From: Candidatus Woesearchaeota archaeon
GTDB taxonomy: Archaea > Nanobdellota > Nanobdellia > Woesearchaeales > GW2011-AR9
Assembly (NCBI GenBank): GCA_018655525.1
Contig: JABIJM010000002.1
Span: 109,575-173,574, forward strand
Direction: 5' to 3'
Length of the DNA stretch: 64,000 nt
Shown here: piece after piece, positions 5,609-43,143 of the stretch
Layout: every line of letters starts with the position of its first letter
Numbering within the stretch: position 1 is the first letter of the stretch
Notes under the pieces: generated by a model
Seen by the model: the letters and a program-made list of their open reading frames with translations, nothing else
Databases searched by the model: none
Told to the model about the DNA's origin: nothing
Position numbers and translations under genes: made by a program

Positions 5609-8600
5609 ATGAAAAAACTAACCTTAATAATTGTACTTTTGCTTATGTTATCTAGTGTAGTCTACGCTGCAGAAGAAGTAGAAACAAATAATTGCGATGG
5701 ATTCTGGGGAAGCTTGAAATGCTTCTTAGTTGGGGATGCAGAGAATCGTGCTGGAATGAGTTGGTTTGATAGAAGCGAGAATTTAGTTGGTTTTGCTGGA
5801 GTTGTTCCAGATGGTTGGCAAAATAAACCTGCTGGAATTTATAAAGGTAAAGATGGAAAGTTATATGTTGTTGGTGTTGCTAAAAATAGAGGAATTGTTG
5901 ATCTTGCAAGAAAAGCAGCAATCGACAATGCAAAACAACAAATGGCAGAAGCAACAGGGGAATCTAATTTTAAATCAATAGCTCCAAATCAAAATTTTAA
6001 GGATGACAAGAATAAGTTATATAAAACCCTTATTGTAATTATTCCTGAAACTCCTGGGCAAAAAACTGATGTTCTAGCTTTAATGAAAAAAGTAGGAGAT
6101 AATGGTTATATGCCTACATTAGAAGATGTTCCAGTTTCACCACCGCAACCAACTCAACCTGATCAACCACAAGGTGCAACGTTGAATAAAGATTCCGTTC
6201 AATTAACTCCTAATGATTACAATACGAAGACTCCATTAACCAAAGACCAATATAAAGCTAAATTTCCAGATAATACTCCCGGTGATTATAATACTTATAG
6301 AAACATTTGGCCTTCTGTAAAATTTGAATCACAAGTAAAAAAGAATTATGATGTGAAGGATGTTAAAGTACAATCCTCAACATTAAATGGTGTGACAACA
6401 GGTCAAATAACAATCACAAAAAAAGATGGAACACAAGTTAAAATTCCTTATACTCGTGATTTAGATGATGATGTTGATAAGGGGAAGGATTTAGATCAAG
6501 TTGTGAATAAATATCTCAGTCAAAATTCAAATACTGCGAGTTTACCACCTAAATCATCTACACCTTCACCAATTGTTGTTCCACCTCTAACAAAAACTCC
6601 AACCTCCCAATCTGTATCCGCTCCAATAATTGTTCCTGCTAAAATTAAATCTGAAGTAAAAAATTCAGGAGCTCTTTCACTTTGTCAACCAACATCTCAA
6701 AAAGGATTATGTAGAGTTTCAGCGGGTGAATCTTTTAATATATTATACAAAGATGCTGAAGGAAACTTTAATCCAGTAACAAGCATCAAAGGAAAAGATA
6801 TTACTTATGATAAATCTAAAGGAACAACAGATCATACTAAAGTTACAGGAGCAGTTAATATCCTTGTTGCAAAGAAGGCTGGAGTGACAGGAGTTCCTGC
6901 AACTTCTGCACCGGTTGTTGTATCACCTACAGCACCAGCTGCACCTACCCCCGTTCCTCAAGTAATAAAGGATCTTGAAACTAAATGTAATAATGATGAT
7001 GCGAACGCTTGTTTTAATTTAGGTGTAAAATATGAATTTGGAGTTTCAGGTGTTGATAAAAATATTCCTAAATCCAAACAATTATTTAGAAAATCTTGTT
7101 TATTTGAATCTGGTGGTATAGCTTGTTCTAGTGCATTAGGTGTTGATTATGAGAACAAACCAAGTATCAAAACATATCAAGACAAATGGATCACTCAAAA
7201 ATGCCCTGATGGAGTATGTCCGACAGGAACAACGTGTATTGGAATAATTTCAAGCGGTAAATGTAAATCAAATGGAGAATTGACTGGTGAAACAGTCGCT
7301 GCAATGAAAGCAGATGTACAAACCGCTAACTTTGCTGAACCTGGAGCAGCAACACCAACTCCTTCACCAGTTCCCCCATCTTCAGCAGTACCTACACCTG
7401 CTCCTCAAACTCCAACTCAAATATCACCTGCACAAGTAGAAGCAGCAACACCACAACTAACTGATTCAGCAAAACAGATCTCAATTAAAAGTAATGGAGC
7501 TGGTGGGGCTGATATTTTGAAAAATAATGCTAAAATTACTGCTACACAAGGTGATATTACTGTAAATGGTGTTCGTCTTGATGGAGATAAAATAGTTGTT
7601 GATGCTACTAAAAAAATGTTATGGGGTGCCTATGATGGAACTGGAGACCTTGGAAGTTTTGAAAAGCAACCTGATGGTTCAGTCAAATTTATTCCTGGAG
7701 ATGATTATAATAAACTCGAAGGAGAACAAAGAACAGATTTTGATGAATTTAAGGACATGATGGTAAAAAGTCCGTCTGCTTTTAAGAAAGTTCAGGATAC
7801 AATTAAAAGTGATAGTATAGATGAAACAGTAACTGCACCAGAATTACGAGATGAAGCTAAGAAAGATGTAAAGGCAACTTTAGAAGCTAAGAAAAAAGCT
7901 GCGACTGGCGGTGATCCAACTAAACCTACTTCAGGAGAAAAAGCGAAAAAAATTTCACAAGCAGGTGGTCAAACTCCAGCTCCTACTCACGATAAAGTTA
8001 ATGAAAAACTTTTGAAGGAAGGAAAAGATCTCTATAAAAGGGGAAAAATTAAAGAAGCTGTTAAAAAGTTTGAAGAAGCTTGTGACAAAGGAAATGGCGC
8101 TTCCTGTGCAAATTTAGGTAATTTATATGGTTCTGGTTCCGCTGAAATTCCGAAAGATCAAGTCAAAGCTAATAGTTTATTCAAGAAAGCATGTGATGAT
8201 GGTACTGCTATTGCATGTAATTATTTAGGTGCAAATTATCAAGCCGGTGAAGGTATCACCAAGAACCAAGCTAAAGCTAATGAACTTTTTAAGAAAGGTT
8301 GTGAAAATGGTAACGCAGTTTCATGTAATAATCTCGCACAAAATTATTATCATGGGGATGGAGTTCCATCTGATTATGATAAAGCTAATAATCTTTTTGA
8401 AATTAGTTGTAATACAGGGAATGCAAATGCTTGTGCTTCTTTAGGATACAATTATCAAAAAGGTCTTGGTTATACTGTGAATAAAAATAAAGCTATGGAA
8501 CATTATGCTACATCTTGTAAATTAGGAGGAGATGATTCTTATTGTGCAGCAGCTGTAGGAATTACAGACGCTGATATTACAGGAGTAAAAAAATATAAAT

Positions 8601-27304: not shown

Positions 27305-27799
27305 TCATGCTGTTAAAATTCTTACTCTAATCTTCTGAGTTGTAGCTTGTGAAGAAACTGGTTTTGACTGAAAATGTTCTTGCAAAGCTAACTCTAATTC
27401 AGAAGGTTTTTCTGATGGCAGAATGCTATCGTGGGGAACTACATAACTCATTGTTTGTTTAAATTTCTTTTTTCCTTTTGGGCCTGATGCTATCAATTCA
27501 CAATCATATAGTGCTCTCTGTTTATTTTCTCCTTTACCAGAAACAATCAAAGCTGCATATTTGTCTCCTTGACTCATATGGTAAACCGCTCCAGCAAAGG
27601 TAGGGGTTGAACCATCAGGGGCAAGTAACTCGACTTGAGAATCTCTTGCAATAACTGAATCGTAACCTAAACTTGCTGCCATACCATGTAATACTTGTGT
27701 GGAAAATCCTTTCTCAATTAATATCCCTGTTAATCTAATTTCTACCATTTTGTGTTTGAATAAGGTGTTTTTTATAAAGATTTTCTCAAGAATGTTCAC
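27305..27799 (-). CDS. Conserved hypothetical protein
   Basis: A 164-aa ORF with a globular alpha/beta-like composition. Family not confidently recognised. Confidence 0.4.
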   Translation of the reverse strand: MNILEKIFIKNTLFKHKMVEIRLTGILIEKGFSTQVLHGMAASLGYDSVIARDSQVELLAPDGSTPTFAGAVYHMSQGDKYAALIVSGKGENKQRALYDCELIASGPKGKKKFKQTMSYVVPHDSILPSEKPSELELALQEHFQSKPVSSQATTQKIRVRILTA

Positions 27800-27835
27800 A
27801 AAACTTTTTTAAATAACTCTCTACAAAATGATCAA

Positions 27836-28267
27836 ATGGAAAGATATTCCCTCAGAGGAGGAATAAATAATGCTGCTAAGATCTTTGGCAGAATAGAAGA
27901 TCGTTTTAATGGAGAGCTCGTAATAAGTCCGCAAGGGTCAATAATTGGTCTTTTACATGAAAGAAGTTGTCTTTCTAGATCTATTAATTTTATAGGAACA
28001 TTAGGTTCTGGAAATTATAAGGGGATTGCAATTTCTTTTGTTGTACCACCACGAAATAAAGATGCTGTTCCCATAACATATAGCCTTACAACTAAAGATT
28101 TAAATGATTTATATGCAGGAAGATATGAGTTAAGAAGAACACCTCATGTAGAAATTTTAAATGCATCTGTAGATTTTGAATTAGAAGGAAATTCTGAAGT
28201 GATTGAACTCAATCCTGATTTTGAATTAGGTGATGTTTGTGAAGTAATTTTAACCAGATTAGAATAA
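27836..28267 (+). CDS. Hypothetical protein
   Basis: ORF only. Confidence 0.35.
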   Translation: MERYSLRGGINNAAKIFGRIEDRFNGELVISPQGSIIGLLHERSCLSRSINFIGTLGSGNYKGIAISFVVPPRNKDAVPITYSLTTKDLNDLYAGRYELRRTPHVEILNASVDFELEGNSEVIELNPDFELGDVCEVILTRLE

Positions 28268-28496
28268 ATTAAAAAAATAAAAAATTATTCCATTTTCTTC
28301 TTGCAACAAGAATACCTTTCAGAAACTTTGTCCCAATTGACTAGCCACTCGACAAAAATCTTTGATCAGTTGTCTAGTGTGAAAACGCTTGAAATATCAA
28401 AAATCATTAGTTTCAATCATTTTAATTCTATTACTTCCCCACTAGACAACCACAGAGAGAACTTATAACTGACAAATATCTAAAATTTAAGGAAAG

Positions 28497-29327
28497 ATGG
28501 ATATAAGAAAAAATCATGATTTACGGTTAAGAACATATGATCATTTAATCAAACTTAAAAAACAAGGCATTTCAAGAAAAAAAATTATTGATTTAACTTA
28601 TGATAATTATAAAATTTCAATTGGAACATTATATTCATGGTATTCGGGGAATAAACCTTATGGAAGGAAAGATAATGTTGTTTATGTACCAGAATTGTTT
28701 TATGTTTTAGGAGCACTTTTAGGGGATGGTTGTCCATACCAATGGAAAATTACAAATAATTATGTTATTCTTGTAGGTGATAATAATTTTACAACAAAAT
28801 ATTCAAATAAACTTGCTTCTTGTATTAAAAAAATTGATAAACCATATATTGACAGAAGTAAAAATGTTTGGTTTGTAAGATCTAATAATTATGAATTGTT
28901 TACTCTTTTTAAAAAATCGCGTGAAAATAATGATTTTCTTAAAAAAATGATTAATAAAGAAAAACATTTATCATCTATTTTTTTTGTTGAAGGTTTCTTT
29001 GATGCTGAAGGCTGTGTCAAAATAATTAAAGAAAAAACAAGAAAAATACCAAAAATTTGTCTTGATTTTACAAATACAGACTTTAAGATTCTTGAAGTAA
29101 TTAAACTAATTCTTAAAGAAAATCTTGGAATTGATGCAAGGTATTCTGAACAAAAATCTTATGTTGGGAGAGATGGATCTTATAGAAAAAAGTGTTATCA
29201 TCTTAGAATTTACAAAAAGAATTATGTTAAAATATTCTTAGAAAATATTCACACAACAAAATTAACAAATAAAAAAGCAACTTTGGTCAAAAAATGGATT
29301 AAAAAAATAAAAATTAAGCAGTTTTAA
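28497..29327 (+). CDS. Free-standing LAGLIDADG homing-endonuclease-like protein with N-terminal HTH-like region
   Basis: Two LAGLIDADG-type motifs are present, LFYVLGALLGDGC and FFVEGFFDAEGCV. It is not embedded in an intein or intron host gene. The sequence is Lys/Asn-rich. Confidence 0.6.
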   Translation: MDIRKNHDLRLRTYDHLIKLKKQGISRKKIIDLTYDNYKISIGTLYSWYSGNKPYGRKDNVVYVPELFYVLGALLGDGCPYQWKITNNYVILVGDNNFTTKYSNKLASCIKKIDKPYIDRSKNVWFVRSNNYELFTLFKKSRENNDFLKKMINKEKHLSSIFFVEGFFDAEGCVKIIKEKTRKIPKICLDFTNTDFKILEVIKLILKENLGIDARYSEQKSYVGRDGSYRKKCYHLRIYKKNYVKIFLENIHTTKLTNKKATLVKKWIKKIKIKQF

Positions 29328-29913
29328 CTTTCTCATAACGTTTAGCTACTTTATCCCAGTTTATGATTTTCCAAAAACTTTCAATCCAGCTAACGCGATC
29401 AGGTCCCCATTTTTTGTAGTATGCATGTTCCCACACATCACAAAGTAAGATTGGTCGTAATCCTGGTGGAAAAGATTTCTGATGGTTCTCAACAGCAAAG
29501 ATGTGTAAACTTCCTTGTGGACATTTTGCGAGAACTCCCCATCCACTTCCTTCTACTGCTGCGGTTGCTGCTTTGAATTGTGCAACAAATTTATCCCAAG
29601 ATCCAAACCATTTTTCAATCGCTTCTAATAGGTCTCCTGAAGCTTTGTTGTCTTCTTTTCCTGGTTGCATGCTCTCCCAGAACATTTCATGAAAAAAATG
29701 GCCTGCGCCATGAAATGCAGATTCTCGTTCCCAATGTTTAATTAATGAGAAGTCTCCTGTTTCTCTTGCTTCTGCTAACTTCTTTGTTGCATTATTCAAT
29801 CCTTTCACATATCCTGCATGATGTTTACCATGGTGGATTTCTAATGTTTCTTTATCATAATATGGTTCTAATGCATCGTATGCATAGGGTAATTTTTTTA
29901 ATTCAAATTCCAT
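29314..29913 (-). CDS. sod: Superoxide dismutase (Fe/Mn family)
   Basis: LPYAYDALEPYYDKETLEIHHGKHH at the N-terminus and the DVWEHAYY metal-binding signature. Confidence 0.9.
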   Translation of the reverse strand: MEFELKKLPYAYDALEPYYDKETLEIHHGKHHAGYVKGLNNATKKLAEARETGDFSLIKHWERESAFHGAGHFFHEMFWESMQPGKEDNKASGDLLEAIEKWFGSWDKFVAQFKAATAAVEGSGWGVLAKCPQGSLHIFAVENHQKSFPPGLRPILLCDVWEHAYYKKWGPDRVSWIESFWKIINWDKVAKRYEKVKTA

Positions 29914-43060: not shown

Positions 43061-43143
43061 AGAATAAATTTGGTGTTAGAAGTTTATATAGATTGCGTGG
43101 ACTTGTCTAGTGTGGGGTGTGGGATATAATGATCAGAAATACT

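Follow-up and report, generated by a model that had tools for sequence, protein, structure and literature searches.

A sod-linked LAGLIDADG gene of a woesearchaeal genome as part of a probable homing element that carries a replacement gene end

A stretch of 64,000 nucleotides from a Candidatus Woesearchaeota archaeon (contig JABIJM010000002.1, assembly GCA_018655525.1; hereafter "the window", to which all unprefixed coordinates refer) contains a gene for a LAGLIDADG homing endonuclease (28497..29327, + strand, 276 aa) that lies tail-to-tail with a gene (sod) for an Fe/Mn superoxide dismutase (SOD) on the opposite strand. An earlier, sequence-only reading of the window had recorded this open reading frame (ORF), its two LAGLIDADG motifs, a helix-turn-helix (HTH)-like N-terminus and an 11-bp inverted repeat upstream, and had regarded the gene as free-standing: either a domesticated regulator or a mobile endonuclease accompanied by its target or operator. 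As set out below, the gene is most probably part of a homing-endonuclease element that targets sod and brings along a substitute for the gene end that it displaces.

The two motifs are present as described (LGALLGDG, aa 71-78, 28707-28730, + strand, with the catalytic D77; EGFFDAEG, aa 165-172, 28989-29012, + strand, with the catalytic E171), and the Pfam family LAGLIDADG_3 (PF14528, E=2.8e-11) covers the C-terminal half of the protein, which is identical (100 %) to HOD05_03150 of a Candidatus Woesearchaeota metagenome-assembled genome. A profile built from 29 family members matched PI-PfuI and I-DmoI in the PDB, if weakly (E about 0.003-0.005). The AlphaFold2 model (pLDDT 91.2, pTM 0.84) predicts three N-terminal helices followed by two alpha-beta-beta-alpha-beta-beta-alpha domains, so that the HTH-like N-terminus of the earlier description corresponds to a modelled three-helix domain (aa 7-50, + strand), and the top Foldseek matches in the PDB are I-Tsp061I and I-DmoI (E~1e-8, prob 1.00). 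The fold and the acidic residues had been named as points to check: the former is predicted to be I-DmoI-like and, among intact family copies, D77 is retained in 69/69 and E171 in 67/69 (28/29 and 29/29 at the catalytic positions in alignment A1). Judged by the predicted fold and the retained Asp/Glu pair, the enzyme appears to be active. In two copies that are intact in other respects, the second catalytic residue is replaced by Gly (FDAGGC); L123, the one inspected, is also the mosaic locus described below that recently acquired a new tail and endonuclease, and the exchange may be an early inactivation step after invasion. The ORF is poor in GC (0.22-0.25, as compared to 0.30-0.41 in the flanks). 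An intron or intein origin finds no counterpart in the data: no Rfam family was detected in the window or in six relatives and no tRNA in the window, hence no intron or known RNA explains the spacer, and Pfam identified LAGLIDADG domains only, without Hint/intein domains, in a protein whose ORF runs antisense to sod. For the whole 64-kb window, both the number of tRNA genes (ARAGORN) and that of RNA families (Rfam) is 0.

The neighbourhood of the gene is strikingly constant. A scan of one genome per species, a metagenome scan and a look-up of exact proteins yielded 92 non-redundant loci, in 85 of which a SOD gene follows immediately downstream in convergent, tail-to-tail orientation, the two stop codons abutting exactly, overlapping or lying at most 27 nt apart. 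In two further loci (Thaumarchaeota) the SOD gene is located upstream on the same strand, four loci end too early to judge, and one has no SOD, such that an Fe/Mn SOD gene adjoins the endonuclease gene in 87/88 informative loci. Other conserved neighbours were not found among the relatives' loci compared. The hosts comprise archaea (Woese-, Nano-, Micr- and Aenigmarchaeota of the DPANN group, Bathyarchaeia, and Thaumarchaeota) as well as bacteria of the Candidate Phyla Radiation (CPR; Wildermuth-, Doudna- and Paceibacteria). No homologue of more than 60 % identity to the window's endonuclease was found; the three at 57-58 % are each encoded tail-to-tail with an Fe/Mn SOD gene, and the nearest endonucleases include that of a CPR bacterium (L011). 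One of the three lies on a contig (P0008) that is bacterial given its sigma-70 gene. These bacterial near relatives, together with the low GC content compared to the flanks, suggest horizontal spread of the element. Among viral contigs only LAGLIDADG proteins of 24-26 % identity were detected and no viral vector was found. In the two thaumarchaeal loci (L041:3588-5042 and L044:2759-4083) the endonuclease gene stands downstream of sod on the same strand, an orientation reminiscent of the mobile open reading frames (mORFs) discussed below. L041 has an unusual SOD tail (WEHAWVHDYLTDRPKY); in L044 the endonuclease gene is frameshifted and the SOD tail canonical. No SOD relic was found in either.

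The constancy of this pair bears directly on the simplest alternative, namely that the gene occupies an intergenic spacer, is unrelated to its neighbours, and has the 11-bp repeat as its own recognition/cleavage site or as a stem-loop. Promoter-like elements of its own and a strand opposite to that of sod would fit this view; however, sod linkage in 87/88 loci and the presence of a sod relic and a hybrid sod at the locus itself make it very improbable, as do several properties of the repeat (see below).

The relic was recognized since blastn and tblastx both identify 28260-28345 as a second copy of a SOD 3' end. It extends over 28285..28365 on the - strand, i.e., upstream of the endonuclease gene, in the frame SKIFVEWLVNWDKVSERYSCCKKKME with its stop codon at 28285-28287 and clear homology over 28285-28341. 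At the DNA level it aligns over 83 nt, at 78 % identity, with the SOD 3' end of the endonuclease-free loci L048/L049, its translation NWDKVSERYSCCKKKME agrees with the native tail NWDKVAEKYSCCKKKME at 14/17 positions (82 %), and a SOD hidden Markov model (HMM) matches it at HMM positions 188-202. The "related tgactag" previously noted at about 28339 turns out to be the codons L-V-N of this relic and not a third half-site. The working gene, in turn, is a hybrid. Its body (29425..29913, - strand; residues 1-163, Pfam Sod_Fe_N and Sod_Fe_C) is of the host type and ends in DVWEH, while comparison of tail identities marks the remainder (29314..29424, - strand; AYYKKWGPDRVSWIESFWKIINWDKVAKRYEKVKTA and stop) as an element-borne replacement 3' end: after WEH-AYY the protein continues KKWGPDRVSWIESFWKIINWDKVAKRYEKVKTA up to its stop, as compared to HAYYLKYQNKRGEWIDNFMKLINWDKVAEKYSCCKKKME in the native tails of endonuclease-free relatives. 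The departure from the native type starts after YY (from 29415 downward), and the tail is only ~50 % identical to native tails, as opposed to ~80 % for the SOD overall. Its "KKWGPxR" type is common to the window and the endonuclease-linked SODs of L012 and L023, and its last 14 nt overlap the end of the endonuclease ORF on the opposite strand. Ungapped DNA matching of relic to functional tail fails because the two copies are recoded, and the junctions were thus mapped by codon inspection. The earlier statement that the gene is "not inserted in any host gene, intein or intron" accordingly survives for intein and intron, but not for the host gene: far from being free-standing, the endonuclease gene sits inside the 3' coding region of sod, whose native end has been displaced.

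Relics of the same kind recur in the family. When six-frame translations of the regions upstream of endonuclease genes were searched with the SOD HMM, C-terminal SOD fragments emerged in 24 further loci, with 25 matches on the sod strand versus one weak match on the other. Every fragment begins between HMM positions 168 and 187 of 203, the longest ones with YYLKYQNRRPEY / (A)YYLKYQNRR in CPR bacteria or (S/A)AYYLQY(K/R)NDR in Bathyarchaeia. These starts place the insertion point at the His codon of the metal-ligand motif D-x-W-E-H or immediately behind it, the same point across the 24 relic-bearing loci.

If an element was inserted here, sod genes without it ought to retain the undivided site, and related loci provide this comparison. 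The window's SOD belongs to a woesearchaeal subfamily with many members at 60-80 % identity. The nearest ones inspected (L046, L048, and L050; 74-80 % identical) have no endonuclease gene, and L046 is syntenic with the window (Fur-Prx-SOD...peptidase M3-PAC2), which establishes the presence/absence polymorphism, at a fixed site, that the sequence-only reading had proposed to look for. Endonuclease-free sod DNA of the L046/L048 type contains TGGGAACATGCGTACTATCTTAAGTACCAAAAC and GATGTTTGGGAACATGCGTACTATCTTAAGTACCAAAACAAACGC, and a degenerate DNA pattern for EHAYYLKYQN occurs in 6/6 endonuclease-free loci and in 0/132 other loci. At the protein level, the canonical motif EH-AYY-LKYQN-x-R is found in 113/119 of the SODs nearest to that of the window, and of the endonuclease-linked ones only 16/50 agree with even a loose form of it (Fisher p=1.7e-17); genomic context was checked for three of the 119, and the others are taken to lack the endonuclease, given that no endonuclease homologue of comparable similarity exists. 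Typical replacements in endonuclease-linked SODs are LKHMWNRAAY, ILYKWQRAEY, VKYFWNRPKY, and KKWGPDRVSW. In the window itself, TGGGAACATGCATACTAC at 29416-29433 is the only partial target remaining, corresponding to its left part.

Mobility is further indicated by mosaic genes. The SOD body of L123 is that of L036 (99 %; 2 differences in about 165 aa), its tail is that of L121 (97 %; 1 difference in 35), and its endonuclease is nearer to that of L121 (82 %) than to that of L036 (76 %), even though the bodies of L121 and L123 are only 65 % identical. The breakpoint falls at WEH|AYY, from which we conclude that tail and endonuclease recombine as a unit onto different SOD bodies. In addition, copies occur in all states of preservation: among the 88 that do not run off a contig, 69 are intact, 11 have a truncated or diverged N-terminus, and 8 are fragmented or degenerate. 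Two SOD relics are present in L020. In L026, an older, decayed copy (L026:3460-3960) lies ~1 kb upstream of the intact one and shows, in order, a SOD tail relic (VNWKKVEELFKKAKR and stop), two copies of the promoter motif introduced below with a TATA box, a C-terminal remnant of the endonuclease (KIPYVEKWLNNGK), and a second SOD relic; the old and the new copy are separated by an inserted gene of 261 aa. This arrangement indicates serial invasion of one sod locus. The eleven members with N-terminal loss or divergence (L027, L028, L039, L040, L042, L043, L092, L093, L106, L119, and L127) begin to match at query residue 41 or later (~60 in nine of them, 180 in L043), so that the three-helix domain is missing or strongly diverged, with an intact LAGLIDADG core in most; they may represent a short isoform or a stage of decay.

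Could sod and endonuclease simply have been inherited or transferred together as one cassette, with the endonuclease as a hitchhiker or immobile fossil and the relics as traces of resident sod genes replaced by ordinary recombination? Endonuclease and SOD-body identities are indeed correlated and of equal magnitude (r~0.55-0.6; Mantel 0/2000), the endonuclease-linked SODs from CPR bacteria share ~60 % identity with those from DPANN archaea, and most loci lack a relic. The window nevertheless argues against such joint transfer, as its SOD body is of the host type, with 80 % identity to endonuclease-free relatives, and foreign sequence is confined to the final 36 codons. Likewise, L036, L121, and L123 document an exchange of tail plus endonuclease independent of the body, all relics start within the same ~10-codon stretch after the active-site motif, which would be unexpected from ordinary recombination, and canonical site and endonuclease gene exclude each other. 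We therefore regard the cassette scenario as improbable. The idea that the tail globally tracks the endonuclease better than the body does was also examined and abandoned (r=0.50 vs 0.55), so only the individual mosaics are informative in this regard.

Taken together, a sod-targeting homing element remains the explanation that we consider probable. It would span ~28369 to ~29424 (roughly 1.05 kb) and be lodged between the sod codons for D-V-W-E-H and A-Y-Y-L-K-Y-Q-N. On the sod strand it would supply a recoded substitute 3' end of 36 codons plus stop that keeps the SOD at full length, and on the opposite strand a LAGLIDADG gene with its own promoter, while the native 3' end, pushed about 1 kb away, would survive as the relic. 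In a cell that holds both occupied and empty sod alleles, the enzyme would cut the strongly conserved sequence of the empty site, approximately TGGGARCAY GCN TAY TAY YTN AAR TAY CAR AAY, and the break would be repaired from the occupied allele with the SOD body and the relic tail as homology arms, thereby copying tail and endonuclease gene into the empty allele. The occupied allele would be immune because its site is split and the right half recoded.

The inverted repeat that first drew attention to the locus is exact, with slightly corrected positions: the distal arm GTTGTCTAGTG is located at 28369..28379 (not 28370-28380) and the proximal arm CACTAGACAAC at 28440..28450 (+ strand), leaving a spacer of 60 instead of 59 nt. 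The distal arm, an inverted copy of the motif CACTAGACA, abuts the relic and hence marks, at least approximately, the left end of the inserted element. The proximal arm contains the motif CACTRGACA 14 nt upstream of a TATA-like box (TTATAA, 28463..28468, + strand) that precedes the ATG by ~30 nt. By its position, which is that of ATATATAAA / TTTATAAA in relatives, this box is probably the promoter of the endonuclease gene and would give a near-leaderless mRNA. As a structure the repeat carries little weight on its own, since one inverted repeat of this kind (11 nt, at least 4 G/C, spacer up to 100 nt) was observed in the 64 kb and 1.1 were expected from Markov simulations; its significance comes from the relatives.

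In the 92 loci, CACTRGACA occurs within 400 nt upstream of the gene 18 times in forward and five times in inverted orientation, with ~0.25 expected per orientation. The motif is about 70-fold enriched upstream of family members. Elsewhere it was encountered only four times in 495 kb, and at least three of these four can be assigned to decayed copies of the element: L026 has two of them, and in L043 one directly precedes the endonuclease fragment. A placement 12-16 nt upstream of a TATA box is seen in L008, L015, L023, L026, L030, L053, L056, L059, L066, L075, and L111; in an archaeal subclade, upstream conservation begins exactly at CACTGGACA, followed 12-16 nt later by the TATA box ATATATAAA. 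Copies often come in twos or threes, direct or inverted, and are spaced 11, 15, 20-21 or ~70 nt apart; L023 and L075 possess a distal copy about 60-80 nt upstream of the proximal one. As a hairpin cannot arise from direct repeats, what is conserved is the motif rather than a stem-loop.

The window has just one other exact copy (43104-43112, - strand); it is situated 13 nt upstream of TATATAAA at nreA, the gene for a DNA-repair protein (Nre_N/Nre_C), and CACTGG(A/T)CA stands at the same distance from the TATA box in two of four relatives' nreA promoters (L137:~500-560 and L138:~510-560, motif 13 nt upstream of the box). A motif common to nreA and element promoters is most simply the site of a shared transcription factor. 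The repeat would thus consist of two copies of a 9-bp motif, the first shortly before the TATA box and the second about 70 bp further away, and most likely binds a factor that also controls nreA, although the N-terminal domain of the endonuclease itself may bind it. More broadly, CACT(A/G)G(A/T)CA suggests an uncharacterised, possibly damage-responsive DPANN regulon.

With respect to the earlier choice between a domesticated regulator and a mobile endonuclease "with its target or operator", the latter is the better option. The repeat looks like a pair of operator-type promoter sites, though not necessarily ones that the endonuclease itself binds; as a cleavage target it fits poorly, the putative target being WEH-AYYLKYQN of sod. 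The spacer's minimum-free-energy fold can be closed by the repeat, which would speak for the stem-loop version of the free-standing alternative; however, the motifs of relatives are single or direct repeats without hairpin potential, the same motif stands at nreA promoters, its resemblance to the sod target is weak, and one repeat of this kind per 64 kb is expected by chance anyway. The resemblance itself, explored as a possible mimicry of the sod target, amounts to 7/12 positions between the reverse complement GATGTCCAGTG and GATGTYTGGGAA in a hand alignment and was dismissed as unconvincing. Likewise discarded were the repeat as helix P1 of an RNA leader, because its arm aligns with CACTGGACA, the promoter motif that precedes the TATA box, and a one-mismatch copy at 5647 within a large ORF, which is taken as chance.

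One subclade does possess a structured 5' leader of ~140 nt between TATA box and endonuclease ATG (L023:4848-4991; also L008, L009, L010, L015, L026, L027, L042, L053, L056, L059, L066, L068, and L005). It folds into a long three-part hairpin, in which GAAAAAGAGAAC...GTTCTCTTTTTC encloses ACGCAAAACTGC...GCAGTTTCGC and a variable tip, and a second hairpin whose 3' arm overlaps the Shine-Dalgarno sequence GGAGG. RNAalifold supports 42 pairs, 15 of them with compensatory changes, and a covariance model recovers L005, which was outside the training set, at 47.7 bits. No Rfam match to the leader was obtained in the relatives scanned, and the covariance model finds no such leader in the window (best E=0.72, at unrelated positions). 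By analogy with the hairpins that sequester the ribosome-binding site of phage endonuclease genes, the leader could serve as a translational control element.

Such regulatory features are also among the arguments for domestication, that is, for a LAGLIDADG protein that arrived as a mobile enzyme and is now kept by the host as a repair nuclease or as a site-specific regulator, for example of sod, oxidative-stress or repair genes, with its N-terminal HTH acting on CACTRGACA, including the copy at nreA. In line with this, motif copies are repeated at helical-phase spacings typical of operators and recur at a repair-gene promoter, the N-terminal three-helix domain is confidently modelled, and a Shine-Dalgarno-sequestering leader in one subclade implies tight control. 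Moreover, 69/88 copies are of full length, the mean identity of the protein equals that of SOD, and the gene pair is obligately linked across phyla. On the other hand, the catalytic Asp/Glu residues are kept almost everywhere, unlike in WhiA-type proteins, and the gene is missing from the closest relatives with the same sod operon. Relics, mosaic SODs, serial invasions, and decaying copies all speak for ongoing mobility. Furthermore, no motif copy was found outside the regions upstream of the endonuclease in the sod-containing loci, and thus none near the start of sod, and nreA promoters carry the motif in loci without any link to the endonuclease. Overall, we consider domestication unlikely, albeit somewhat less so than joint inheritance as a cassette.

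Several observations nonetheless weigh against a sod-targeting element as proposed here. All endonuclease-free comparison loci belong to one SOD subfamily, and a third of endonuclease-linked SODs keep a loosely canonical protein motif. At the left junction, 9 nt (AYY) still match the target exactly, and immunity must consequently rest further 3'. About 70 % of loci have no detectable relic, and the relic boundaries, as the sole basis of the putative cut site, span ~10 codons (AYY to NRR). In CPR bacteria, 23-36 nt separate the relic from the ATG, and no promoter is recognisable. Finally, a mean pairwise identity of 0.50, the same as that of the SOD body, is unusually high conservation for a selfish gene, and over all loci the divergence of the endonuclease follows that of the body (r~0.55) at least as well as that of the tail (r~0.50). 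Conservation and correlation together bring long co-inheritance, and possibly a host benefit, into play.

Apart from the element, the window shows a second rearrangement beside it. Two ORFs without Pfam matches (164 aa, - strand, and 143 aa, + strand) occupy 27305-28267, a place that in syntenic L046, between the genes for peptidase M3 and SOD, is taken by a split YgiQ-like radical-SAM gene.

The closest parallel is provided by mORFs of fungal mitochondria, as described for atp6 of Allomyces macrogynus and for atp6, atp9, cox2, and nad3 of Glomus sp. (PMC3630166). In these, a foreign C-terminus has been inserted together with an endonuclease ORF (mostly of the LAGLIDADG type in Glomus), for which cleavage of alleles without the ORF has been proposed, and the native C*-terminus is displaced (PMC3630166). 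The sod element shares with them the endonuclease ORF in the 3' part of a conserved gene, the foreign C-terminus that creates a hybrid gene in frame, and the native C*-terminus displaced about 1 kb downstream, which is closer to relatives than the inserted copy. It differs in that it resides in archaeal and CPR-bacterial chromosomes, targets sod, and is spread over two domains of life; moreover, while mORF endonucleases are encoded on the same strand and fused or co-transcribed, the endonuclease gene is convergent with sod in 85/87 loci and has a putative promoter of its own. The sod element thus works like an mORF without being a member of that group.

A second point of reference is intronless homing in T-even phages and cyanophages (SegF/SegG, MobE, and F-CphI next to psbA), in which free-standing enzymes of the GIY-YIG, HNH or EndoVII types are encoded between genes. 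The sod element likewise lacks an intron or intein, and it may further resemble these systems in expression signals of its own (the promoter-like TATA box and motif), in protective allele differences (the recoded tails), in co-conversion of flanks, with the L036/L121/L123 mosaics being consistent with short co-conversion tracts, and in the presumed cutting of a conserved neighbour. In contrast to them, a LAGLIDADG gene is located inside the target gene, a duplicated and recoded 3' end and a relic are present, and the hosts are cellular.

As for the protein, I-DmoI and I-Tsp061I, its best structural matches, likewise have two motifs per chain with an Asp/Glu pair, but they are only 16-20 % identical to it, are encoded in rRNA introns and target rDNA, whereas the sod-linked protein comes without an intron and with an extra ~60-aa N-terminal three-helix domain. 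The combination of a LAGLIDADG scaffold with an HTH-like DNA-binding domain recalls WhiA, the domesticated transcription factor of Gram-positive bacteria, which has lost its catalytic residues, carries its HTH at the C-terminus, and is inherited vertically, with a near-universal presence in its clade. By comparison, D77/E171 are kept here, the additional domain is N-terminal, and the distribution is patchy, with empty sites in the nearest relatives. I-TevI, in turn, represses its own promoter via an operator that mimics its homing site. A specific protein site at the endonuclease promoter would be a feature in common, provided that the N-terminal domain binds CACTRGACA; the motif, however, has no convincing likeness to the sod target, and its occurrence at nreA promoters points to a host factor.

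In a full-text literature search of partial coverage we found no report of an association between LAGLIDADG genes and sod, and "undescribed" is accordingly a provisional term. On balance, we lean toward viewing these genes as a new gene-invading LAGLIDADG family that extends across two domains of life, targets the active-site region of sod without intron or intein, and combines an antisense endonuclease gene with a recoded 3' end. It would be a prokaryotic counterpart of the mORFs, wired to an nreA-type promoter motif and, in one subclade, equipped with a Shine-Dalgarno-sequestering leader.

To our knowledge, nearly all homing endonucleases described in cellular prokaryotes reside in introns or inteins, whose splicing masks the insertion. 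The sod element would represent a third route into essential genes, in which a spare, recoded gene end mends the damage in the DNA itself, a solution that, as far as we found, was previously documented only in fungal mitochondria. It explains the otherwise puzzling obligate pairing of sod with a LAGLIDADG gene in many reduced genomes, and implies that the sod genes of these lineages are mosaics shaped by a selfish element. Family genes are currently annotated as "hypothetical" or generically as "LAGLIDADG family homing endonuclease", and the relics have been overlooked. The enzymes are candidate natural meganucleases with a target of roughly 20-30 bp that can be predicted from relics and empty sites and that is situated in one of the most conserved enzyme motifs known. 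Lastly, the distribution of the element indicates gene flow between CPR bacteria and DPANN archaea.

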